A stretch of DNA of 64,000 nucleotides from Escherichia coli (GCF_030013595.1 NZ_CP122768.1), one strand, 5' to 3'. Numbered from the stretch's first letter, positions 24,609 through 37,188 are shown. Program-made: numbers and translations. The notes: a model not told the origin generated them from the letters alone.

Positions 24609-25019
24609 ATGACCACCATTTCAGGCAAATTAGAGTACCCGTCGGACAAAGGACACATAGACGACGGTAAAAACTATCTCGACGTCATTTTGTGGAATAT
24701 GAACGCCGGGCCACGTGCGCGCACTCGTGCGGTTTTTGTACCAAGACCCAAAGCAGGCAATTTTTCAACACCAGCTCAGCCTGCCCGTCAGGCATCCGTA
24801 GCCGCAGCGCCAGCAGTGAAATGTAAGGGTAAAACGCACATCGGGATCGCGATTCGCAGAAATGGTGAGCGGCAAGTGAAACTCCACGAAACAGCGACAA
24901 CCTGGTGTGCTTCACCGCATGAAACTTACGACAAGATAACCGGGCAGCGCATTGGTGCGCCTGGTCGCTGTCGCCTGCTGTTGAGCTCCATCACTCCGAT
25001 AGAAAAGAAAGGGGCGTGA
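24609..25019 (+). CDS. Hypothetical nin-region protein
   Basis: 136-aa ORF preceded by ACCGAGGAAAGACCA leader motif. Confidence 0.4.
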   Translation: MTTISGKLEYPSDKGHIDDGKNYLDVILWNMNAGPRARTRAVFVPRPKAGNFSTPAQPARQASVAAAPAVKCKGKTHIGIAIRRNGERQVKLHETATTWCASPHETYDKITGQRIGAPGRCRLLLSSITPIEKKGA

Positions 25020-25020
25020 T

Positions 25021-25257
25021 ATGACCGGGCAATCAGATTACCTGCCGCCCGGCTTACCACACAACCGCGCCAAATGGCCCCAGGAATACCAGCTTAAAGA
25101 GCACTACGACATGCGAGCGGCGGCGCTGATCCGCCAACTCTTTGAGAAACGTATTCCGAGGGGAAGCGTGATTGAGCAAATCGGAATGACGCCGGATACA
25201 TACCGGGAATTTTTCAGAGAGCGTCTGAACTACTGGAGAGGGGTGATGGAACAATGA
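25021..25257 (+). CDS. Hypothetical nin-region protein
   Basis: 78-aa ORF, tightly packed with neighbours. Confidence 0.35.
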   Translation: MTGQSDYLPPGLPHNRAKWPQEYQLKEHYDMRAAALIRQLFEKRIPRGSVIEQIGMTPDTYREFFRERLNYWRGVMEQ

Positions 25258-25565
25258 AATACAAACGGTGGGTGCGTGCGGAAGTCGTAATCATCAAACA
25301 ATGTGCAGGCAGCATGACAGTTGAACGTATAGGGCAGCTTATTGGCAGAACCGGTGCAGCGGTACGCACAAAAGCGCGCGAGCTGAAAATCTGTATGTAT
25401 CTGCGGGGTAATTATCATCAGTCAGCGAAATACTGCCAGGAGGATATCGAGCTGGCAAGGGAATTACATCAGTCGGGTATTAATCGCCAGGATATCGCGG
25501 AAAAACTCGAAATGCCGATCGGAGCGGTGAATCAGTTTGTTTATTTTGAGCGGAGGATTTCATGA
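25254..25565 (+). CDS. Putative HTH DNA-binding protein
   Basis: 103 aa with two HTH-like segments (MTVERIGQLIGRTGAAVRTKAREL; INRQDIAEKLEMPIGAVNQF). Confidence 0.35.
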   Translation: MKYKRWVRAEVVIIKQCAGSMTVERIGQLIGRTGAAVRTKARELKICMYLRGNYHQSAKYCQEDIELARELHQSGINRQDIAEKLEMPIGAVNQFVYFERRIS

Positions 25566-25786
25566 AAGAACTTTTTCTGGCATTTGTGCCCCGGTTTATT
25601 AATGACCAGATCGCACTGACTAATAATGGTGAACAATATGAAATTGCCTGCAGCATGGTGGATGTGAATCCTGGCGAACGGTATGACGCGATGTGTGACC
25701 TGAAAATATTTACCTGGCTGGGTTGGGCTATTCCGTGTGGAGAACCAACCAATATTCGCCCATTTGAGAGCAGGGAGGCTGTATGA
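25562..25786 (+). CDS. Hypothetical protein
   Basis: 74-aa ORF overlapping neighbours by 4 nt. Confidence 0.3.
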   Translation: MKELFLAFVPRFINDQIALTNNGEQYEIACSMVDVNPGERYDAMCDLKIFTWLGWAIPCGEPTNIRPFESREAV

Positions 25787-25949
25787 GTGAATTGAAAATA
25801 CGAATGAACCCAAGTCGCAAGGCGATCAAATTTGCGCAGTGTGTCTTGCAGATGGCTGAAGGTGAATGTTATATAAAAGAGTGTCATGGATAACAAGGCA
25901 CTCACTATCAATGATTATCTGTTAAAAAAGCAATCGACAAGGAGTTGAA

Positions 25950-26207
25950 ATGCAGACTCAATTAAAGGTTAAAGGCGGTTATAGTCATTTTTTCTTCGCC
26001 AATATTGAAGTCTCACAAAGAGAGTCAAATGGCGGTTTGGTTGTCGTTAGGGATGTTAATATACCTATTACAACAACAACTCTCTCTCTGTTAGAGAATT
26101 ACGCTGTAGGGCAGGTGTTGACGTTAGAACAAAAGAATGGCGATTTTTTTGATGTGTATTACGTTGGAACTGATGGGAATAACTTTCAGTTTTCAACGCA
26201 CTGCTAA
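25950..26207 (+). CDS. Hypothetical AT-rich small protein (3' end lies in repeat copy A)
   Basis: 85-aa ORF with AAGGAG RBS; its last ~90 nt reappear degenerate at 31186.. Confidence 0.4.
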   Translation: MQTQLKVKGGYSHFFFANIEVSQRESNGGLVVVRDVNIPITTTTLSLLENYAVGQVLTLEQKNGDFFDVYYVGTDGNNFQFSTHC

Positions 26208-26350
26208 TTTATCAAGGCCCTGTGAGCAGGGCCTTCGAAAGCCTACTAAAGTCTGTTTCATAGAGAGAGTTATTTGCGATTAAAAAGGTATTTGGTCACG
26301 ACCAGCACGATAGAGAATACATCTTTCAAAGTACCGCCCATATAAAACAG
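26118..26350. repeat. Imperfect direct repeat, copy A (~230 bp)
   Basis: Roughly 80-85% identical by eye to 31186..31413 (ttgacgttagaacaaaa ... aaaaggtatttggtcacgacca). Confidence 0.7.
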
Positions 26351-26649
26351 TTACATATGCACTTGATGACTAAGCTGGCACCAGGTTAACACCATGCGCC
26401 AGCTTGAAGGAGACTTCAGTTATTGGTTTCTGAGGAAAGCGATTCTTGAAAGGGTCATTTGCGTCTGGCAGTCGACCATTTTCTTGACTTCAGCATCTGT
26501 TCCTTTCTTGACTTCAGCATCTGTTCCCTGCATTGAAACTTTACCGCACATAGCATCCTTAGTTTTGATCCACTGGCGCTGAGAAGGCAGCAACTTGAAC
26601 CGCCCCGGAAATCCTGGAGACTAAACTCCCTGAGAAAGAGGTAAACAGG

Positions 26650-26976
26650 ATGACTAAAAATACTCGTTTTTCCCCCGAAGTCCGTCAGCGGGCGATTCGT
26701 ATGGTTCTGGAAAGTCAGGATGAATATGACTCACAGTGGGCGGCAATTTGTTCCATTGCCCCAAAGATTGGCTGTACGCCGGAGACTCTGCGTGTCTGGG
26801 TTCGCCAGCATGAGCGGGATACCGGGGGCGGTGATGGTGGGCTCACCAGCGCTGAACGTCAGCGTCTGAAAGAGCTGGAACGTGAAAATCGTGAACTGCG
26901 CCGCAGTAACGATATCCTTCGCCAGGCTTCCGCTTATTTTGCGAAGGCGGAGTTCGACCGCCTCTGGAAAAAATGA
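26650..26976 (+). CDS. IS3-family transposase OrfA (HTH)
   Basis: [41 protein letters not shown]...; ends in AAAAAATGA frameshift window (A-run 26968-26973). Confidence 0.85.
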
Positions 26977-27863
26977 TGCCACTGCTGGATAAGCTGCGTG
27001 AGCAGTACGGGGTCGGACCGGTATGTAGCGAACTGCATATTGCCCCGTCAACGTATTACCATTGTCAGCAACAGCGACATCATCCGGATAAACGCAGTGC
27101 CCGTGCGCAGCACGATGACTGGCTGAAGAAAGAGATACAGCGCGTATACGATGAAAATCACCAGGTATACGGTGTGCGTAAAGTCTGGCGTCAGTTGTTA
27201 CGGGAAGGTATCAGAGTGGCCAGATGCACTGTGGCACGTCTCATGGCAGTTATGGGACTTGCCGGTGTTCTCCGGGGTAAAAAGGTCCGCACTACCGTCA
27301 GCCGGAAAGCCGTTGCCGCAGGCGACCGCGTAAACCGTCAGTTCGTGGCAGAACGACCTGACCAGCTGTGGGTGGCTGATTTTACTTACGTCAGCACATG
27401 GCAGGGCTTCGTCTATGTGGCGTTTATCATTGATGTGTTTGCCGGATACATCGTGGGGTGGCGGGTCTCATCGTCTATGGAAACGACATTCGTGCTGGAT
27501 GCGCTGGAGCAGGCGTTGTGGGCCCGTCGTCCGTCTGGCACCATCCATCACAGCGATAAAGGCTCTCAGTATGTGTCACTGGCCTATACGGAGCGACTAA
27601 AAGAAGCCGGATTACTGGCATCAACAGGGAGTACAGGCGACTCGTATGACAACGCGATGGCTGAGAGCATCAATGGTCTTTACAAAGCGGAGGTAATACA
27701 CCGTAAGAGCTGGAAAAAACGTGCAGAAGTGGAACTGGCCACACTAACGTGGGTGGACTGGTATAACAATCGACGATTGCTGGGAAGGCTGGGCCATACT
27801 CCTCCGGCAGAAGCAGAAAAAGCTTATTATGCTTCCATCGGAAACGATGATCTGGCAGCCTGA
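26973..27863 (+). CDS. IS3-family transposase OrfB (DDE catalytic domain), -1 frame relative to OrfA
   Basis: 296 aa with DDE integrase-core-like region (...[31 protein letters not shown]...[10 protein letters not shown]...[15 protein letters not shown]). Confidence 0.85.
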
Positions 27864-29436
27864 GTTCACAGATAAAACACTCTCCAGGAAACCCGGGGCG
27901 GTTCAACTCTTTTTTCTTCGCCGGGGTTAACTTGCTCCAGACGGTATTCAAATCAGAGTCAGCATTTGCAAATGCCATTCGGGACTGATCAAGGCTTTCA
28001 GATTTTTGCGGCTGAAGTTGTGCCTGCCTCTCTTTTTGCTTCTCCGCCTCATACCTGGCCTGTTCCTGTGCCCTGAGTTGCACCTGTTGTTCCGCTTCAA
28101 TTTGACTCTGTTGGGCATCCTTAGCCTGCTGGATTTTCTGCTGCTCAACGATCGGGTTGATAATGGAAAGCGATGTCAGTAAAGCGGCGCCCACTGATAT
28201 CGGATTATCAGAAGAGGTTTTTACAAAAACGTTTTTCTGATCGTCGGTCGCCTGCACGGTGTAGGTGATACGCCTTGAAAAGGCGTTTGCGTTGTTCTCC
28301 AAAAACAGATTTTCCATTTGCTTATCGAGATTACGATTAAAATTCTTTCTGTAAGCATCTGAAAGCTGGACGTACTCGTTCGCAGGTAGAGTCATCGTCA
28401 CGGTCCCTTCACAAGTTTTCATTGTGCTGCCCGTGTCACTTGATGTTGTGGAGATTTCAGAGACGGCTAGTTTGATCTTGTCCAGTGTGCTTCGTTTGGT
28501 CTGATTAGTGACATCAGGGTATTTATCGACCTGTTCAGAGAGTCCTTCATAAGCAGATTTTTTTAATAAATCCATGAGAGCTGATTGGGTCATTTCCGAA
28601 GAACAACCGATCTCATCTTTTTTGTTATCACAGCCTGTAAGGGCAATGGCGAGTAAGAGTACTGAGTATTTTAATCTCATGAATTCCCTTTAGAGTAAGG
28701 ATTGGTTTTTAAGACGCGGTCTGTAATCAGTTCCGAGAGCTACAGTAAACAACGCTGAGCACTGAACGCATCACAGGCAAGGTAAAAGGTGATATCGGCA
28801 AAGGCTGTGAAACCTTTAATTCAACAGATGGGAACGGTATGCACAGGATCCTGTAACGACGCTCCCAAAACTGGAAACCTGTAAGGCATGTTTTCGCTGC
28901 TGAACTTAATATACGAACCTGCACTATCATGAACATATTTTATATCGTTATACCCCGAGTGATTGTGCCCGGCAATGGATAGTGTCCTGGAGGAATTATT
29001 TCTAATGTAAAAGGAAGATATTTAATTTCGATGTGGGATTATTACCTGTCTATAAGAACAATGACTTTATCTGGCAGTAAGCAGACATCTATTAGCTTAC
29101 TGAAGGGGGGCTGTGATTTGACCATTAACGGCATGAGATATATTGTCTATTGGTGATTGTTCTGAGGCCGATATCACGTTAACGACCAAGTAAAATAACA
29201 TGAAAAATTATTTATTAATGATTGCCAGCATTAAATGTAGTGATACCTCATTAGCAGGGTGCTCCGCAATGACTGCGATGAACTAAAAAATCAGTCATAA
29301 CCATGAAAAAAACAAGTGTATCAGCGAAATTAAATCTGGTGAAAGCATTTAATTACTTGTTAATGACGCAATAAAAACATACTATGGAAATGTAACAGCT
29401 AATCTACAGTTCTTGTCAATAGGGGCGCACAAGAAA

Positions 29437-30027
29437 ATGTTAAATGAATTTAAGGAAAAGCTACTATCCGACGATATCCGCGATGTCTACCAACGATACC
29501 TTTTAGGACATGACATCTGGTATTTTCGGGAACAAAAAAAATCAATAACCTTTGCTAAAGATTATGATGAGTTTAAGCTATATATGTCTAAGAAGCTTGA
29601 AATTCATGTAAATAATATTGCAATTGTTGGAAGTGCTAAGATGGGATTCAGCTTGAGCCCTGATAAAAATTATCGAACATTTAACGATGAGTCAGATATA
29701 GACTTGGTTTTAGTATCCGACAGAATTTATAAATCTTCCTGGATGGCATTTATTGAATTACAATCAAAGAATTATTTGCCTGTATATGCTCCTGTAGCTA
29801 AAAATATTTTCAAAGGATTCGTGTCATTGAAGGAGTTAGATATTAGAGTCGATTTTTTTAATAAATGGTCCCGTAACGTTGAACCATTAAAAAAAGACAT
29901 TCAAACTATTTTTGGAATACCTAACGACATCAACTACAGAATTTATGACTCTTGGGAGTCCGTTGAACGCTATCACATAGCTGGGTTGAATAGTCTAAAA
30001 GATAAGTTACAAGGACAATTGATATGA
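29437..30027 (+). CDS. Nucleotidyltransferase-fold protein (Pol-beta superfamily signature), function unknown
   Basis: IAIVGSAKMGFSLSPDKNYRTFNDESDIDLVLVSD = hG[GS]...[DE]hDh motif; AT-rich; stop overlaps next start (ATGA); track ORF begins at TTG 29413. Confidence 0.5.
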   Translation: MLNEFKEKLLSDDIRDVYQRYLLGHDIWYFREQKKSITFAKDYDEFKLYMSKKLEIHVNNIAIVGSAKMGFSLSPDKNYRTFNDESDIDLVLVSDRIYKSSWMAFIELQSKNYLPVYAPVAKNIFKGFVSLKELDIRVDFFNKWSRNVEPLKKDIQTIFGIPNDINYRIYDSWESVERYHIAGLNSLKDKLQGQLI

Positions 30028-31082
30028 GAGCTATTGATCTAATTAAAGTTGAATCGAAAGACATTAAATGGTTGACGGATAATTTGAAATCAGGTGTTAT
30101 TACAGTTGATAATTCATATCAGAGAAAATATATCTGGCAGCAAAAAGACCAAGTGGCCTTAATTGAGACAATATTAATTGGCTACCCAATCCCTGAGATT
30201 TACCTTTGGGCAAATAATACTGATCCTGACACTGGAGATACTAAATATTCAATTGTAGATGGACAGCAAAGGCTAACCACAATCCAGCGATATTTAAATG
30301 ATGAGTTTAAGTTAAGCAAAGCAGCTATAGATGATAAAGAAGCCGACTATAGTGGGAAAATTTTTTCAGAATTGTCGGCAGATAACAAACGTGATTTTTG
30401 GCGATACCAATTCTCATCCAGATTTATTAATGAATCATTGAGATATGATGAGATTGCAAAGTTATTTTTACGTCTAAATAGAACAAATACTACGTTAAAT
30501 CCTCAAGAACTTCGTAATGCTGAATTTAATGGCGAGTTTTTAAGATTAGCCGAAGAAATTGCACAAAATGAATTTTGGGATAATTATAAGATATTTACTC
30601 AGTCAGATATCCGTCGGATGCAAGACATTCAATTCATCAGCACATTATTGATTTTCTTACGAATGGGTATTGAGCAGGATAATACACAAAAATCAATTAA
30701 TCGAGTGTATGATCAATACAATGAGAATTACCCTGAGGCGACTGAGGACAGAATTATCTTTAACGAAGTGTTAAGGATCATATCTCAAATTATCAACAAT
30801 AAACAAGTATTAGAATCAGTTGTAAAGAAAAAAGGCCATTTGTATTTTATATTTGTGCTGGCATACTATTATTTACAGCTTAGTAAATCTAAGCTTGTTG
30901 ATATGAATGTTATTAGTTCAAAGCTCGAGGATTTTTTTAATATTTATGAGTTAAATGAACAAGATAACCCCCATCCACTGGTTGAGGAATATAGATTCCT
31001 CAGCCAAGAGGGTTCAAAGAAGAGTCATAACAGACAGCGTAGATTTGATATTTTGAAAGAATTTTGCTCTTTACATGATTAA
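30024..31082 (+). CDS. DUF262 / ParB-like protein (GmrS-type N-domain only, no DUF1524/HNH half)
   Basis: YQRKYIW...IVDGQQRLTTI and ...LNRTNTTLNPQELRNAEF motifs typical of DUF262; 352 aa; AT-rich. Confidence 0.6.
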   Translation: MRAIDLIKVESKDIKWLTDNLKSGVITVDNSYQRKYIWQQKDQVALIETILIGYPIPEIYLWANNTDPDTGDTKYSIVDGQQRLTTIQRYLNDEFKLSKAAIDDKEADYSGKIFSELSADNKRDFWRYQFSSRFINESLRYDEIAKLFLRLNRTNTTLNPQELRNAEFNGEFLRLAEEIAQNEFWDNYKIFTQSDIRRMQDIQFISTLLIFLRMGIEQDNTQKSINRVYDQYNENYPEATEDRIIFNEVLRIISQIINNKQVLESVVKKKGHLYFIFVLAYYYLQLSKSKLVDMNVISSKLEDFFNIYELNEQDNPHPLVEEYRFLSQEGSKKSHNRQRRFDILKEFCSLHD

Positions 31083-31185
31083 ATGACGAAAGTGGGTTGT
31101 TTATAAGAATTGAATAAACAACCCATCATTTTAATGTACTCTGAATCCTCTCATTCTTAGTGAAATATTGTTTTTAGAACACGTA

Positions 31186-31413
31186 TTGACGTTAGAACAA
31201 AAAATAGATTTTTTTGTGATGTATTACGTTGGAGTTGATGGGATAATTATATGTTTTCAATACATTGTTAATTTATCAAGACCCTGCGACTAAGGTGTTC
31301 GAAAATCGACTAAAGTCTGTTTCATAGAGAGAGTTACTTGCGTTTAAAAAGGTATTTGGTCACGACCAACACGAGGCCGAATACCTCAGTTTAAGTACCG
31401 CTCATGTACAACA
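31186..31413. repeat. Imperfect direct repeat, copy B (~230 bp)
   Basis: Degenerate duplicate of 26118..26350, including a decayed copy of the 3' end of the 25950..26207 gene. Confidence 0.7.
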
Positions 31414-31603
31414 GTAACGTTTGCTGATAGTGTCGCATTATCTTGCAGAGGACGCAGGTTAAATAGAACAAGCATATGTACCTGGTTTTTGTAATATTGG
31501 GTATAACATATGCTTTATAGGAGCGCGCTCAATGACCAACCGAGAAAGAATCTCCTGACAGATACAGTTATTTTCACCCTCTCCATAACATAAGGGAGTT
31601 TTT

Positions 31604-32152
31604 ATGTCGGAAGTGAGTATCGTAGAAGACGCCCCACGCCCAGTAGTCGCCGAATTGGCAGATCTGTTACAAGCACAACCATTTCATCAGAATCAATATG
31701 ATAACTTATGTCGCTTTATGATTTATTTTTCCCTGGCTGAATCAAAGTTAACATCAATGGCTGCTGGCCTTGGTAGAACTGACGCACTGGCACAGGAACT
31801 GGTTGTGCATAACGGCATGGACAGTCAGACCATAGATGATTGCTATCGTTATTTTATACGACGCTATCGAGACAGCCCTGATAGCGATTACCGCTTCAAT
31901 AAACTGGCCCCGCCTGAGTATGTTAAGAATGCAATCAGAGAACGCTTTGTTACGCTACTTCAGATACAGTCTCCAACAATTGAAGATAAAATCAGCTTTG
32001 TGTTCAAAGTGATTTTTAGGTTACGGCATAATCTTTTCCATGGAGAAAAATGGTCTTACAACCTCGAAGACCAGGAAGCTAATTTTTCACATGCCAGCAA
32101 TGTACTACTATCCTGTTTGACTCTTACTCGCGGGAGTATGTGGCACCCTTGA
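31604..32152 (+). CDS. HEPN-motif protein (putative RNase / abortive-infection-like effector)
   Basis: AAGGGAG RBS; 182 aa containing FRLRHNLFHGEK, which fits the Rx4-6H HEPN motif. Confidence 0.45.
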   Translation: MSEVSIVEDAPRPVVAELADLLQAQPFHQNQYDNLCRFMIYFSLAESKLTSMAAGLGRTDALAQELVVHNGMDSQTIDDCYRYFIRRYRDSPDSDYRFNKLAPPEYVKNAIRERFVTLLQIQSPTIEDKISFVFKVIFRLRHNLFHGEKWSYNLEDQEANFSHASNVLLSCLTLTRGSMWHP

Positions 32153-32403
32153 ATGCTGGATGGATATTACGTATCGTCTGATAAGGGGTATCCAGATGTG
32201 GCTTGCAAAGAATGCCTGAGCATGTCTGTTATCGCAGAGGCGATCCTGCGCAAGCAGCCAGCTGAGTACCTGCATCTAACGCAGACCAGCTGCTCTTAAA
32301 CCGACTTCATTATCAAACATTATTTATTTTTAGCGACTACTTACTACATCTAGTGGTAGCTGAAATAAAATAACCTGCATATAGTGATTTTCGTCGTTTA
32401 AGT

Positions 32404-32500
32404 GCTTGACAATTCTGCACATGGCATTTAACGGTGTCTGTGGTAAACTATCCACAGAATAGTCAACAGTGTTGGATTGTGGATAATCGCCGGATATATG
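32404..32500 (+). promoter_or_regulatory. Putative promoter with palindromic operators upstream of small gene
   Basis: TTGACA at 32404; perfect palindrome tctgtggtaaactatccacaga; second inverted repeat gttggattgtggataatc; strong RBS GGGAGG. Confidence 0.4.
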
Positions 32501-32510
32501 GGGAGGATAA

Positions 32511-32705
32511 ATGGCTAAATATGAACTTCGACCACTGTCAGATAGCCGTAAGGCTGACATTGCTCGCAGTGCATTAGCACAAAATAGAGCCCCTGCTAAG
32601 CCTACTGCTTCAATGTCCTCTGGCTCTGCTTCAATACAGAGATCACGAGATACTGCGCGAGTAATGATGGATCGTGCATTCAGGACAGTTGTAGCCAAAG
32701 GATAA
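32511..32705 (+). CDS. Small hypothetical protein (64 aa)
   Basis: Strong RBS gggaggataaATG; followed by a clean terminator. Confidence 0.45.
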   Translation: MAKYELRPLSDSRKADIARSALAQNRAPAKPTASMSSGSASIQRSRDTARVMMDRAFRTVVAKG

Positions 32706-32722
32706 TTTTACTTTAATTGATT

Positions 32723-32749
32723 AAAGCGCCTTTTTCTGGCGCTTTTTTA
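32723..32749 (+). terminator. Rho-independent terminator
   Basis: agcgcctttttctggcgct hairpin plus T-run. Confidence 0.6.
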
Positions 32750-32764
32750 TTGCGGAAAAACCAA

Positions 32765-33445
32765 ATGGAAAAGCTCTGGGTTTTTACTCAATTAGTTACA
32801 GGGAAAGATGACACATCTGGCTTTTTGGCTTACGCGCTCTATAAGCACGACAAAAATGAATATGCAGAGAAGTTGCGTAGTAGTGGCGAATATACAGAAG
32901 AAGATATTAACGCCCAACTGAAGATCTTTCATGAGCAGACAGTTAACTCGCCAGGCCGAATTGAGTCTTACAAAGAAAAAGCAGAAGCCATCGTCACAAA
33001 CTTAACAGACCAGATAGATGCTGATATCCGGCTTGAGTACGATGCACAGTTAGCCGGTGCTAACTTGCAGGATGTTGAAATAGAACGGCTGAAAGCAGAA
33101 ATACAGGCTATGAAAGCATCACGTGAGAGCGAGCTAAGGAAGGCTGGAGAGGATGCTATTCTCAATTTTCATCGCATGGTTGAAATCACCCAGGCACGCA
33201 AACGTGGGCGTGTTTCCCGCTCGTTAGGATGGTACTGGAATGGGTTTGCCAGCATTTTCGCCACAATAACCTTCGCTGTCATTGTCTATGGTATTTGTAC
33301 TTGGGCATTGCCACAAAAATCCAGAGACGACATTGTGGATGGAGCGTTTAAAAATCTACAGGGATCGTTATTCCAACAGCCAAACATTCAATTTAATAAA
33401 GACAAAAACGAGAACGCTCAGCAACCTAACACAAGTGCCGAATAG
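32765..33445 (+). CDS. Coiled-coil protein with C-terminal transmembrane helix
   Basis: Start at MEKLWVFTQ after the terminator; hydrophobic segment GFASIFATITFAVIVYGICTW; track ORF begins at 32717 inside the terminator. Confidence 0.45.
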   Translation: MEKLWVFTQLVTGKDDTSGFLAYALYKHDKNEYAEKLRSSGEYTEEDINAQLKIFHEQTVNSPGRIESYKEKAEAIVTNLTDQIDADIRLEYDAQLAGANLQDVEIERLKAEIQAMKASRESELRKAGEDAILNFHRMVEITQARKRGRVSRSLGWYWNGFASIFATITFAVIVYGICTWALPQKSRDDIVDGAFKNLQGSLFQQPNIQFNKDKNENAQQPNTSAE

Positions 33446-33622
33446 TATCCCCGCGATGCTCCGGTAGCCTCACCATCTCGCGGGGCTTGCCTTTCCAGGT
33501 GATTGACATGATTACCAGTTTCTGAATACCGTTTTCAACGGTACTGAGCACCCAGGTGACGGTGAAACGTGAAGAATATCGCACCTTATTAAAGGTGCAG
33601 CCCCTCAAAAGAGGGGCTATTC

Positions 33623-33856
33623 TCACTTCTGCAGTATCTCGCCAATACCTGCCAGGTTCTCATCCATCTTGTCACCGTTTTCGATAAGGATGGAGTTGAG
33701 CCGATTCAGTTGCATAGCAATTTCAAGTTTGATTAAAGTATCTACCGATACATCAGTTTCTTTTGCTAACTTAGTAAGAGCCTCAGCCCGATTGGCTAAA
33801 TTAAAATCATCGAACTCATAACGACTTCTGCACGGCTGGTTGCCTAACGTACCCAT
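33623..33856 (-). CDS. Hypothetical small protein (77 aa)
   Basis: Minus-strand ORF with GAGGAA RBS; hairpin gcccctcaaaagaggggc just downstream of its stop. Confidence 0.4.
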   Translation of the reverse strand: MGTLGNQPCRSRYEFDDFNLANRAEALTKLAKETDVSVDTLIKLEIAMQLNRLNSILIENGDKMDENLAGIGEILQK

Positions 33857-34097
33857 AGTGATTCCTCATGATATAAAGACCCAACAATATAAATTACCAG
33901 GCACATCATAAGATAGGGGCCCAGCCCATATTTTCAAATATTTGCAAGTATCACCGTTCAGTCTAAAAACTTGGATGGTTGTTTCACGAGTCATAACAAA
34001 ACCCTGACTCGGCGGGTTTTCTTTTTATAGAACTCTGCGATGCGACAACGAATAATAAATTGTGCAAATAGTGCTGTTTTTATTATTCGAGGTGGAT

Positions 34098-34730
34098 ATG
34101 AGATCATTCTATGAGGACTGGCCTGAAACGTTTGTCACCCGACTTGACATGCTGCGGGCGCTGGATAACCGGGGGGCAACCCGGAGACTCTACACAAAAC
34201 GTACAGGGGCGATTTACAACGCGCTGGCAGACGAGGTTCGTGAGGCTGTGACTGGATTCAATACCAGTGAACTCGACTTAGGACCACTCTACCGGTATTA
34301 CAAACGTGGAGGAGAGAGCGACGCGCTGGCAGACACACTGATCGCACTGGCGCCGACTGTGTGCAGGCGCGTAATGATTTCCCCTGACGTATATACAATA
34401 CCGTACCTGTTTTTTGCGCTGTTGATAGCGCGAGGAGAGGACGACGATGCACGTGATTTTTTCAATATGATGATGCGGCCACTAATCGTGGCGTACCGGT
34501 TCAAACAACTGGCGCGTTATCTGGGAACAAAGGGCGGAGGGAGGCCACAGCACAGGCTAAAAGACGAGGCATTACAGATTGCAGAGGTTTTTTTCACAAA
34601 TAATCCCCACGCACGGGTTAGTGCGGCGGTGGCACGTATTAACGAAATTCTCGTAAAAAAATATGCTGACGTTCCGGCGGAGTCAACTATTAGAAAATGG
34701 TTAACCCATGTTTATGGAAATGAAAAATAA
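34098..34730 (+). CDS. Hypothetical protein (210 aa)
   Basis: RBS gaggtggatATG; track ORF extends upstream from a GTG at 34062. Confidence 0.45.
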   Translation: MRSFYEDWPETFVTRLDMLRALDNRGATRRLYTKRTGAIYNALADEVREAVTGFNTSELDLGPLYRYYKRGGESDALADTLIALAPTVCRRVMISPDVYTIPYLFFALLIARGEDDDARDFFNMMMRPLIVAYRFKQLARYLGTKGGGRPQHRLKDEALQIAEVFFTNNPHARVSAAVARINEILVKKYADVPAESTIRKWLTHVYGNEK

Positions 34731-34877
34731 TAACCATAAACCGTTTTTTCCGGGAATAAACCGTTTAATCAAATTCACGCGGTGAATATAATTGCTCATT
34801 ATTCCCCCATTGCATTTGATGTTATGACATACGATAAAAAATACTGTATATATACAGGGTTTCTGTCAGGGGGAAAT

Positions 34878-35057
34878 ATGAACACACACGAGGCGATCAG
34901 CAAATTACCGGATACGTGCCGGGCTGTAATCAAACGAGAAGAGGGGCGCGTAGTGATTGTACGCGTCCTCAGCGACGACGAGCGGATTGCCAGCCTGCTG
35001 GCGTTTCTCGAGTTGGCAGAAACAGCTGGATATACTATTACACCCCCTGACGCGTAA
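34878..35057 (+). CDS. Hypothetical small protein (59 aa)
   Basis: Internal ATG with GGGGGA RBS. Confidence 0.3.
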   Translation: MNTHEAISKLPDTCRAVIKREEGRVVIVRVLSDDERIASLLAFLELAETAGYTITPPDA

Positions 35058-35134
35058 TACGCGGTATAATACTGGTGCTGGTCTGAACACCCGGCACCAT
35101 TTTCTGAGCACTGCCGCGCCACCTGGAGTTAAAC

Positions 35135-35731
35135 ATGGCGCAGCATTCATTTATCAGGGTATCCGGCGGTTCGCTAATACCCGCGACACCAGACACGCAA
35201 CGCTGGTTGACTGAACGAGTCAAACCAGATGCTGTTGTGTATGCAGATTTCAAACAGGCGCGTAATCCCGCGTTTCATCGTAAATTTTTCTCACTTCTAA
35301 ACCTGGGCTTTGATTACTGGCATCCGTCCGGAGGGGCTATTTCTCCTGCGGAGCGCGAACTGGTCCATGGCTACGTTAAGTTACTGGCGTATTACGGTGG
35401 ACACGGTGATGTCATGGCAGAGCTGGCTGATCAGTATCTTCTCGATGAGTCGGAAAAGCGCGCGGGGAATATCAGTGCGGTGAAGTCGTTCGAGGCGTTT
35501 CGCGCCTGGGCGATTATGGAAGCTGGGTTTTATGACGTTCATCAGATGCCGGATGGCAGTTTGATGCGCGTACCTCGTTCAATCTCGTTTGCTGCGATGG
35601 ACGATCTTGAGTTCGGTCAACTGTATTCAGCCGTTTTAGATGTGCTGTGGAATTATATTTTGTTCCGCACGTTTGCCTCTCAGGAGGCCGCTGAAAATGC
35701 TGCCGCGCAGCTGCTGGATTACACATCATGA
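35135..35731 (+). CDS. Lambdoid nin-region protein (DUF1367-like, tentative)
   Basis: 198-aa ORF with GGAG RBS just upstream of the YbcO-like and Q-like genes. Confidence 0.45.
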   Translation: MAQHSFIRVSGGSLIPATPDTQRWLTERVKPDAVVYADFKQARNPAFHRKFFSLLNLGFDYWHPSGGAISPAERELVHGYVKLLAYYGGHGDVMAELADQYLLDESEKRAGNISAVKSFEAFRAWAIMEAGFYDVHQMPDGSLMRVPRSISFAAMDDLEFGQLYSAVLDVLWNYILFRTFASQEAAENAAAQLLDYTS

Positions 35732-36021
35732 AAAAAATCGACCTGAGAAAAGCTGCATGCGGTCGCGCTTGTACTGTGCGTATCCCCGGTGTGTGTAATC
35801 ACAATCCGGAAACCAGTGTACTGGCTCACTACCGCCTCGCCGGAACGTGCGGCACAGCCATCAAACCTCACGATATGCAGGGCGCTATCGCCTGCAGTGC
35901 GTGTCACGATGCCATCGACGGGCGTACAAAAACGGATTACGAGCACGACTCATTGTTGTTGATGCACGCTGAAGGAGTTTTCAGAACACTGGCTATCTGG
36001 CGCGATGAGGAGTTTATCTGA
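35728..36021 (+). CDS. YbcO-like Cys-rich nin-region protein (putative nuclease)
   Basis: 97 aa with CxxxC ... CSxCHDAIDGRT pattern; resembles DLP12 YbcO as I recall. Confidence 0.45.
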   Translation: MKKIDLRKAACGRACTVRIPGVCNHNPETSVLAHYRLAGTCGTAIKPHDMQGAIACSACHDAIDGRTKTDYEHDSLLLMHAEGVFRTLAIWRDEEFI

Positions 36022-36692
36022 TGAGTAACGAGTATTTATTGGAATATACCCGCATAAAACTGCGTGCTGCATTACGGGATTTGTCTGGTGGTTCTAAGGG
36101 GCAACTGGAAGCATTGTGTGAGCACCCGCCAGCAGATAAAAACGCATACCCACGCAAACATATTCATCGTGTGCAACTGGAGGACCGGACCGTTGATGCT
36201 CTGGTTCCGCCAGTTTATGCCCTGGAAAGTTTCAGCAGACGTCGCCCCGCGCCGCCGATGAATGATTTTGAATTCGCTGATTCATCGTGGCGCCGTGCCG
36301 TGAACGCGCTCGACGTTAGCCAGCAGGCGTGGTTGCGCTATTGCTACGGTGGTAACCTGGCGTTCAAACACCAAACAGCTATTTGTGAGGCTGTCTGGAG
36401 TCGCTATAAAGGAAACATCTCTGCGTCAACTCAGAGAAAAGTAGTCAAGCGCCTGCTTTCGTTGGTGTGGTTGTCCGTGCAGGCGGTCGCAGCAGCAAAT
36501 AAACGCGAGGATTTTAAGGAGATGGCCGGATCTGCGCTAGCTGGAATGTTGTCTGTTTCTCGTTCCACCTGGTGCGAAACATACTCCCCGCACTGGGTAG
36601 GAATGAAAGAGGCGGTGAGAGCACTTGATGAAGTGGCACTTTTTGCAACTTTGCATCATTATCAGAACCATTTAGACGACGTTTGCGTATAA
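36021..36692 (+). CDS. Late-gene antiterminator Q-like protein
   Basis: 223-aa ORF directly upstream of a promoter/terminator pair and the lysis cassette. Confidence 0.5.
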   Translation: MSNEYLLEYTRIKLRAALRDLSGGSKGQLEALCEHPPADKNAYPRKHIHRVQLEDRTVDALVPPVYALESFSRRRPAPPMNDFEFADSSWRRAVNALDVSQQAWLRYCYGGNLAFKHQTAICEAVWSRYKGNISASTQRKVVKRLLSLVWLSVQAVAAANKREDFKEMAGSALAGMLSVSRSTWCETYSPHWVGMKEAVRALDEVALFATLHHYQNHLDDVCV

Positions 36693-36760
36693 TGCTTGCA
36701 AAACCGAACAAAATAGGCCATATTTAACGCTAATTTGGTATGTTGCCAAATTTCTAAGAA

Positions 36761-36784
36761 CCTCGCCACGGCGGGGTTTTGTCG
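36761..36784 (+). terminator. tR'-like terminator in late-operon leader
   Basis: cctcgccacggcgggg hairpin plus ttttgtcgttt between the Q-like gene and holin. Confidence 0.5.
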
Positions 36785-36804
36785 TTTCTGAATCAGGAAA
36801 AATC

Positions 36805-37188
36805 ATGTCTGAACCTCTAACCGCTGGCGTTGCTGCTGGCTCGGCGGGGGTGACGTTTGCTGCGTTATTTCCTGAGGCAACACCTGCAGTGATGATCTGT
36901 GCGCTGGCAGGCGCAGCTCTCTATGTGTTGTCATCCGGGCAGCATCGATTCTGGAAGCAGGTTATTTTCGCACTCATTTCGTTTGTTGGCGGTGTGTATT
37001 GCGCTGAGACAGCATCAGCCATCATTACCGGTATTCTGAATGCGGTGCTGAGTCACCTGAACCCTCCCGTAACAGTAAAAGTCTCTCCCGCCATTGGTGC
37101 ACTGGTTGCATCAGTAATCAGCGTTACATCACTGTTGCGGATCATGTCACAAGCTCGTTTATGGAAATCAGATAAGGGGATGAAATAA
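36805..37188 (+). CDS. Putative holin
   Basis: 127-aa membrane protein with several hydrophobic segments, first late gene before endolysin. Confidence 0.5.
   Translation: MSEPLTAGVAAGSAGVTFAALFPEATPAVMICALAGAALYVLSSGQHRFWKQVIFALISFVGGVYCAETASAIITGILNAVLSHLNPPVTVKVSPAIGALVASVISVTSLLRIMSQARLWKSDKGMK

Follow-up and report, generated by a model that had tools for sequence, protein, structure and literature searches.

Introduction

HEPN domains are metal-independent RNases with a composite active site, made of two Rx4-6H motifs across a dimer, and their products carry a 2′,3′-cyclic phosphate (PMC3710099). The motif occupies the end of a helix and the loop that follows, the residue after its arginine is 'mostly N, D or H', further helices are often inserted between helices 2 and 3, and a second acidic residue, in an Ex3[K/R] pattern of helix 2 near the motif, is usual (PMC3710099).

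Several described systems are close to the locus analysed here. HepS (STM14_3211), from the Salmonella prophage Gifsy-1, is a 'HEPN Solo' abortive-infection anticodon nuclease (PDB 9OIJ/9OIK; Nature 2026, PMC13043305). It is a latent tetramer, which a siphovirus tail-tip protein opens, leading to cleavage of tRNA anticodon loops (PMC13043305). [quoted passage not shown] Smaller HEPN proteins are known as well: HepT of the HepT/MntA pair (HEPN-MNT, DUF86; PDB 5YEP, 7AE2, 8XDJ; MNT-adjacent HEPN TTHA0636, 1WWP), and the pEK499_p136 HEPN family (PF18736) of Enterobacteria, small too (~160 aa), which appears as a 163-aa nuclease in DefensePredictor DS-28, a validated defence system. To our knowledge, HepS is the only solo HEPN protein whose mechanism has been worked out so far, ApeA being a larger, multidomain relative.

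Results

A HEPN-like gene in the variable slot of a lambdoid prophage

The window, a stretch of 64,000 nucleotides of Escherichia coli DNA (NZ_CP122768.1), is a lambdoid E. coli prophage. The 182-aa ORF with a ribosome binding site reported by the initial annotation is present: its ATG lies at 31604, 5 nt beyond a Shine-Dalgarno sequence that is read directly in the DNA. The features used below are the following.

26107..26360, + strand: repeat copy A, left flank of the cargo, made of the 3′ end of an 85-aa gene (25950-26207) and the spacer after it
31175..31424, + strand: repeat copy B, right flank of the cargo, in which the 3′ end of the 85-aa gene is degenerate
31592..31598, + strand: Shine-Dalgarno sequence AAGGGAG
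31604..32152, + strand: ATG-start ORF for a predicted stand-alone HEPN-like protein (putative RNase), 182 aa
32153..32299, + strand: 48-aa ORF, remnant of a phage DNA polymerase III theta (HOT) homologue, starting right after the stop codon of the HEPN-like gene
32511-32705: unannotated 64-aa basic ORF, its ATG preceded at 5 nt by a GGAGG box, and followed by a terminator-like hairpin
32723..32745, + strand: terminator-like hairpin with a T-run (consensus scan), conserved in strain EC28
32765-33445: gene for a 226-aa protein (phrog_25194) that has a coiled coil and, at its C-terminus, a membrane helix
35135-35731: DUF1367 (NinB-like)
35728-36021: DUF1364 (rus-like)
36021-36692: antiterminator Q

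The gene is rare in E. coli. It was found in 7 of 5,426 complete genomes, where RefSeq annotates the 549-bp CDS as 'hypothetical protein'. In close relatives of the prophage, repressor/cro-like genes come first, then the replication genes, among them one for a DnaB-type helicase, some small genes, a cargo that varies, and the HEPN-like gene; further downstream come DUF1367, DUF1364, antiterminator Q, and the lysis and packaging genes. The rest of the variable region includes a 77-aa gene on the minus strand (33623-33856, phrog_5550).

Three different cargoes were found upstream of the HEPN-like gene among E. coli prophages. An LprI-like gene and an NTase-like/DUF262 gene pair make up the cargo of the window and of two pig isolates. 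In EC28, it includes a methyltransferase and a SMEK-domain gene. For A42, ECO20, ECO21 and EC28, the match to the window begins only at position 31393. JNE151685 has the HEPN-like gene directly after the 85-aa gene, and its one repeat is a hybrid, identical in its left part to copy A and 97 to 100% identical in its right part to copy B. Copies A and B are ~80% identical to each other, and by this sequence comparison they are the homologous flanks of an inserted cargo of ~5 kb. The HEPN-like gene had been placed immediately after copy B; copy B is real, but 180 nt separate it from the ATG. Base composition is layered as well, with 32-35% GC in the cargo, ~42-43% in the HEPN-like gene and the next gene, and 50-52% in the phage backbone.

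The cargo of the window also carries an IS3-family element (26650-27863), whose frameshift pseudoknot ALIL was recognised at 26931-27047 (Rfam, 119 bits). The element occupies the 3′ end of the LprI-like gene (27670-28680, minus strand), the ORF of which runs on into the IS, and just to its left is a perfect 24-bp tandem duplication (TTTCTTGACTTCAGCATCTGTTCC twice, 26480-26527). In the HCP5S3_I2 prophage, otherwise 99% identical, an IS3 is found instead between the DUF262 and HEPN-like genes.

On the other side of the HEPN-like gene, the segment 32153-32299 was matched by tblastn to an intact theta gene of ~85 aa (phrog_1105, 1.7e-38), which lies upstream of relatives of the HEPN-like gene in other prophages. 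The remnant has lost its start codon in EC28 and has a broken frame in JNE151685. The 48-aa ORF that abuts the stop codon was therefore rejected as an antitoxin or partner, being a fragment of a decayed theta/HOT gene, and it marks a recombination junction.

A conserved Rx4H motif in a large protein family

The 182-aa protein contains FRLRHNLFHGEK (residues 138-149, nt 32015-32050), which had been noticed as fitting the Rx4-6H motif of HEPN proteins. The motif is there, but its occurrence in one sequence is not significant, since shuffling this Arg-rich protein yields an Rx4-6H match 74% of the time. A third match, R176-H181, is unconserved. A word-indexed search gave ten close relatives, all from Enterobacteriaceae and 59 to 96% identical. 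A profile of these ten, run against 1.84 billion cluster representatives at E≤1e-3, retrieved 561 proteins, i.e. 561 clusters at 50% identity, mostly from Proteobacteria. Almost all of the best 150 of the 561 are 120-220 aa long, which makes the family overwhelmingly single-domain. All relatives are named 'hypothetical protein' in their sources, and a precomputed Pfam domain is present in none.

In an alignment of 102 relatives, six residues are invariant (E46, R87, R141, H146, G147 and K149), and seven more are nearly so (F38, Y88, R139, N142, N143, Q157 and N160). The predicted catalytic motif is encoded as follows:

32018..32050, + strand: predicted catalytic Rx4H motif, R139-L-R141-H142-N143-L-F-H146-G147-E-K149

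What goes beyond chance at the sequence level is the invariance of R141, H146, G147 and K149 in 102 of 102 relatives, the mean column identity being 27%. The motif residues are therefore conserved in homologues, R141 and H146 have the spacing of the HEPN motif, and the arginine is followed by a polar residue of the expected kind: at position 142, 93 of the 102 relatives have N and 8 have H, the residue of the window protein, and N143 is found in 101. The consensus of the block reads YRLRNNLFHGxKW.

The predicted fold places the motif as in HEPN nucleases

AlphaFold2 (AF2) gave a moderate model with the alignment of ten sequences (pLDDT 83.5). With the 102-sequence alignment, the five models agree, with pLDDT values of 91.8-93.2 and a pTM of 0.89. 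The model is all-alpha, with helices at residues 14-21, 29-48, 50-53, 56-68, 74-90, 94-101, 109-120, 126-143, 150-153 and 155-175. At the end of helix 126-143 stands R141, and H146 is in the loop beyond, ahead of the long final helix 155-175, so that the motif sits at a helix end and in the next loop (pLDDT 93.2). Helices 94-101 and 109-120 are intercalated between the long helices 74-90 and 126-143. The model thus fits the HEPN rules of PMC3710099 for the site of the motif, the residue after the arginine and the helical inserts. As to the other invariant residues, E46 is at the end of the first long helix with a +4 residue that is not K/R, and R87 is in helix 74-90; these two are placed by sequence and helix only, and the usual Ex3[KR] acidic residue of helix 2 was not located. 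From the model, we infer which helices would correspond to H1 and H2 in HEPN terms.

A fold search among solved structures ranked five HEPN chains among the best 60 of 48,164. HepT is among the matches, and SO_3166 (5yep_B) was seen with the first, ten-sequence model. Generic helical proteins such as dynein, plexin, RasGAP and acyl-CoA dehydrogenase score as well as the HEPN chains, which means that the fold search taken alone is suggestive, not decisive. A Foldseek search of AFDB50 returned 57 matches at E≤1e-3; the 50 listed are nearly all 155-195 aa long and 18-52% identical, and are the family itself. The UniProt names of these neighbours are Apea-like, RiboL-PSP, MAE_28990 or TIGR02391 (Ymh) HEPN. 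We presume that the 'Apea-like HEPN' names may be machine-predicted rather than model-based, and we keep the HEPN names as a lead only, because the Pfam HMM does not reproduce them.

The helical model, with the motif in HEPN position, agrees with the HEPN fold for which the initial annotation looked to structure prediction. One could also suppose that the protein is no enzyme, but a helical bundle, similar to HEPN by convergence, whose RNNLFHGxKW block serves in binding or structure. We regard this as quite improbable: an Arg and a His that never vary, four residues apart, the Arg being followed by Asn or His, and both in the topological position that HEPN RNases use, are hard to explain without catalysis, and chance would give far fewer HEPN chains than the five among the best 60. 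That the 182-aa protein is a HEPN-fold nuclease is, in our judgement, likely.

No named HEPN family matches the protein

Comparison with HMMs of HEPN families, proposed as a check at the outset, gave no HEPN match in Pfam, NCBIfam or PADLOC. Pfam gave no match at all to the 182-aa protein at E≤10, and in the per-member Pfam tables of 126 relatives neither a HEPN family nor HepT/DUF86 appeared. NCBIfam gave none for the protein and 10 relatives. PADLOC had none for the protein and no HEPN family match for the 20 relatives scanned; the only matches were weak ones of a single relative, P0025 (PDC-M47A, 4.8e-4; PD-T4-10_B, 2.9e-3), which were not reproduced by 10 further members. No named HEPN family can therefore be assigned. 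In PHROGs, phrog_27260 alone was matched (1.2e-9), with no function assigned there. Searches of PDB sequences, with the single protein and with the family profile, gave chance matches only. A profile comparison with the pEK499_p136 HEPN family (hhalign) indicated no relation, with the single sequence or with the alignment (probability of 0.3% for the latter). Literature searches on the RefSeq accessions and the PHROG number returned nothing. One protein from the machine-learning screen DefensePredictor, WP_226756922.1, is a family member (hhalign probability of 99.9%), independently listed as a 'predicted novel defense gene' without validation.

The gene is not tied to the upstream NTase-like/DUF262 pair

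HEPN-MNT pairs are common (PMC3710099), and the HEPN-like gene had been proposed to be the partner of an NTase-fold gene lying ~1.6 kb upstream, either as the HEPN half of a HEPN-MNT module or in a three-component system with the DUF262 gene. The DUF262 gene (30024-31082) was confirmed, its PADLOC match to NsnA (4e-41) agreeing with its RefSeq name; the 352-aa product also matches PD-T4-2_A (2.5e-19). NsnA is a component of Menshen, and neither NsnB nor NsnC was seen beside the gene. The NTase identity stands less firmly: the 204-aa product of the other gene (29413-30027) has a polymerase beta-like GS...DID motif, on which its assignment is based, and it matched nothing in Pfam, NCBIfam or PADLOC, including NTase and MNT HMMs.

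The stop codon of the NTase-like gene overlaps the DUF262 start (ATGA), and no such overlap exists with the HEPN-like gene. The whole cassette is missing from five of the seven E. coli genomes that carry the HEPN-like gene (JNE151685, EC28, A42, ECO20 and ECO21), and in the other two, both pig isolates, IS3 stands between the DUF262 gene and the HEPN-like gene. The GC contents of the cassette (32-35%) and of the HEPN-like gene (42-43%) differ. By tblastn, no NTase-like homologue was found beside the family members at other loci; for DUF262, the only trace was one marginal match of 58 residues (E 2.7e-4), ~3.5 kb downstream of the relative at locus L050. No conserved neighbour, such as an adjacent, co-inherited MNT gene would be, appeared at 77 genomic and 57 viral loci, and a DUF86/HepT model was matched neither by the protein (Pfam, E≤10) nor by the 126 relatives. 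Against the GS...DID motif and the frequency of HEPN-MNT pairs, these data make the partnership very improbable, and the identification of the protein as a HepT/MntA toxin was rejected in the absence of an MNT gene and of a DUF86 match. The low-GC NTase-like and DUF262 (NsnA-like) cassette, 29413-31082, may be a candidate defence pair of its own.

No conserved neighbour accompanies the gene

To look at neighbours more widely, ORF families within 2.5 kb of the gene were counted at 77 loci from different species. None is conserved: no family was found at more than 6 of the 77 genomic loci (8%). The 226-aa membrane protein gene accompanies the HEPN-like gene in the same seven genomes, inside one 2.1-kb block that is at least 96% identical, but the homologues with 69%, 62% and 51% identity do not have it beside them. 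It was rejected as a partner, being confined to this near-identical block and missing beside the 69 and 62% homologues. Its RefSeq start at 32765 (226 aa) is likelier than the TTG start of a 242-aa ORF, which the hairpin 32723-32745 overlaps. Compared with EC28, an antisense ORF of 122 aa (32330-32698) has 7 non-synonymous codon changes and 2 synonymous ones, and it was discarded on that ground.

Since an antidote is required by many HEPN toxins, the protein might be the toxin of a TA pair, with an antitoxin that would be either the 64-aa ORF or an RNA from the non-coding DNA that extends ~500 nt on either side of the gene. The strong Shine-Dalgarno sequence of the 64-aa ORF and the hairpin after it fit such a scheme, as does the presence, in some distant relatives, of a small HTH gene just upstream or of an overlapping downstream gene. 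However, the 64-aa ORF is confined to the seven near-identical E. coli prophages; tblastn (E<0.5) showed no relative of it next to other family members, and it has no PHROG match. Its 4 nucleotide differences with EC28 (2 synonymous, 2 non-synonymous) are uninformative either way. As for an RNA antitoxin, the Rfam scan of 25000-37000 recognised the IS3 ALIL pseudoknot only and no RNA near the HEPN-like gene, and the flanks are unconserved among the 52-69% identical homologues. With no neighbour common to more than 8% of the loci, a TA pair appears unlikely.

In some lineages, family members do have a close neighbour. The gene immediately before them encodes a TrlF-family AAA-like ATPase (8e-206), a relative of the anti-phage protein Ppl (L039 927-3908, L078 696-3788), the TIR-like PADLOC candidate PDC-S35 (1.5e-96; L034 3084-3938, L040, L041), or a 167-aa PDC-S57-like protein (L097 3395-3898, L099, L100). 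In several cases, stop and start codons overlap or the gap is at most ~30 nt. These pairings may be lineage-specific two-gene systems with the HEPN protein as effector.

We conclude from these genomic comparisons that the HEPN-like gene is a stand-alone 'moron' with its own ribosome binding site and no obligatory partner, because three different cargoes lie upstream of it, the 226-aa gene is missing beside homologues, and no neighbour is shared.

Expression signals and occurrence outside phages

A GAGGG/GGAG box is kept in homologous loci at the position equivalent to the Shine-Dalgarno sequence of the window. In the 69%, 62% and 51% identical homologues, a TATAAT-type box is found ~25 nt before the ATG (L024 4948-5000, and the equivalent positions of L028 and L004), and in one of them the site is complete (TCGAAA-17-TATAAT). 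In the same three homologues, a hairpin pairs CCCTC with the GAGGG of the Shine-Dalgarno sequence (z -1.4 to -2.4), and its paired positions differ in sequence from locus to locus; it may be a translation-limiting 5′ structure. In the window (31570-31603), the TATAAT box and the hairpin are both weak, and sequestration of the Shine-Dalgarno sequence was not retained for this copy, where the hairpin is not significant (z -0.27). A consensus scan found no sigma-70-like site upstream of the window copy on the plus strand, and because of this, expression in the lysogen is only presumed. The hairpin at 32723-32745 is possibly the end of the transcription unit. Further upstream, ~90-130 nt before the gene start, a perfect 9-bp inverted repeat, AGCATATGT ... 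ACATATGCT (31471-31479 / 31506-31514, spacing of 26 nt), could be an operator or a hairpin.

Relatives were found on 60 viral contigs, mostly prophages of isolate genomes, which fall by sequence into 22 groups. Downstream of the relative, 11 of these have a rus-like DUF1364 gene and 8 to 9 have NinB-, RusA- and Q-like genes, which is the slot seen in the window. A theta (HOT) homologue lies just upstream in 9 of the 22. By tblastn, neither the 182-aa protein nor a 196-aa prophage relative had a match in 50,697 deposited phage genomes. Most family members lie outside phages, on chromosomes or in transposons, ICEs and defence-gene neighbourhoods, with individual loci beside hipAB (in an ICE), vapBC, a Cap4 nuclease, NTase-conflict/nSTAND genes, or KwaA.

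These observations bear on whether the gene serves the phage itself, as an early-operon RNase acting in host shut-off, in lysis-lysogeny regulation or in counter-defence. Its orientation is that of the early-right operon, which runs from the replication genes to ninB, rus and Q, so that lytic transcription is expected, and no promoter of its own was detected in the window copy. Yet the family lives mostly outside phages, it is missing from the deposited phage genomes, and the TATAAT box of the homologues, ~25 nt upstream, is typical of independently expressed morons. We hold a phage-serving role to be unlikely.

Discussion

The reading we lean towards, with modest confidence, is that the gene encodes a solo HEPN abortive-infection RNase, as a self-contained accessory gene of a lambdoid prophage, the defence role being suggested by context and by analogy. 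The family is probably an uncharacterised one of the HEPN superfamily, acting as a solo defence effector.

The analogy is closest with HepS. Each is a small HEPN protein that stands alone and carries an Rx4H motif, and each gene sits in the accessory part of a lambdoid prophage, past the replication genes. Neither has a conserved partner, the homologues of both being scattered in prophages. The 182-aa protein thus shares with HepS the situation of a solo HEPN protein in a lambdoid accessory region, which is a functional analogy and not homology. No sequence or close structural similarity to HepS (PDB 9OIJ) was found, in a comparison made without direct sequence alignment; the LT2 Gifsy-1 record contains no ORF with R100/H105, and HepS is not in that record.

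With ApeA, the likeness would be in the fold. The HEPN domain of ApeA has extra helical insertions around a four-helix core, as in the model of the 182-aa protein, and its closest structural relative is HepT, which is also among the fold matches of our protein. However, ApeA is multidomain, whereas the 182-aa protein has no N-terminal or Mid domain, and the match to Pfam HEPN_Apea or to PADLOC models is absent for the protein and the relatives scanned. ApeA identity was excluded on these two grounds. The HepT/MntA proteins are only ~10% identical to the 182-aa protein, which has roughly 50 more residues that form the added helices. The pEK499_p136 HEPN, finally, needs a second gene.

From HEPN biochemistry and from the precedents of HepS and ApeA, the two defence nucleases of this kind that work with no partner gene and whose mechanism is resolved, we infer RNase activity, dimerisation, latency, a trigger and a defence phenotype for the 182-aa protein, which could be articulated as follows. 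The gene would be a moron in the variable slot of the prophage, between the replication genes and ninB/rus/Q, and the lysogen would make a latent, self-inhibited oligomer of its product. Two subunits would bring their R-x4-H motifs together into an active site, and the helices outside the four-helix core would be the candidate sensing or autoinhibitory surface. A product of an infecting phage would then switch the protein on; once activated, it would cut host RNA (tRNA anticodon loops or mRNA), translation would stop, and phage production would be blocked.

Tentatively, and with less confidence than for the solo RNase itself, we also put forward a wider possibility. The protein might be the first recognised E. 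coli member of a large unannotated family of self-sufficient HEPN nucleases of 160-195 aa, which would sense infection and kill, and would make up a defence family of their own, apart from HepS and ApeA. The family-specific helices beyond the four-helix core (residues ~50-68 and 94-120) would be the sensor or the autoinhibitory oligomerisation surface.

As regards the neighbourhood, the idea of a three-component NTase/DUF262/HEPN system can be dropped, and the NTase-like and DUF262 pair is better treated as a unit of its own. A HEPN moron in a prophage will not surprise the specialist; what makes this one attractive is a compact family together with natural cargo variants. The family is small in protein size, widespread, and absent from Pfam, NCBIfam and PADLOC v2. 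The gene exists with and without adjacent cargo in near-identical E. coli prophages, which makes for an easy genetic system. The question that solo HEPN proteins pose is how a 20-kDa toxic RNase with no antidote gene is kept silent, and then triggered by infection. If the defence role is false, the gene would be one more uncharacterised prophage moron; if it is true, the family would provide another single-gene immune module, possibly with a new trigger logic.
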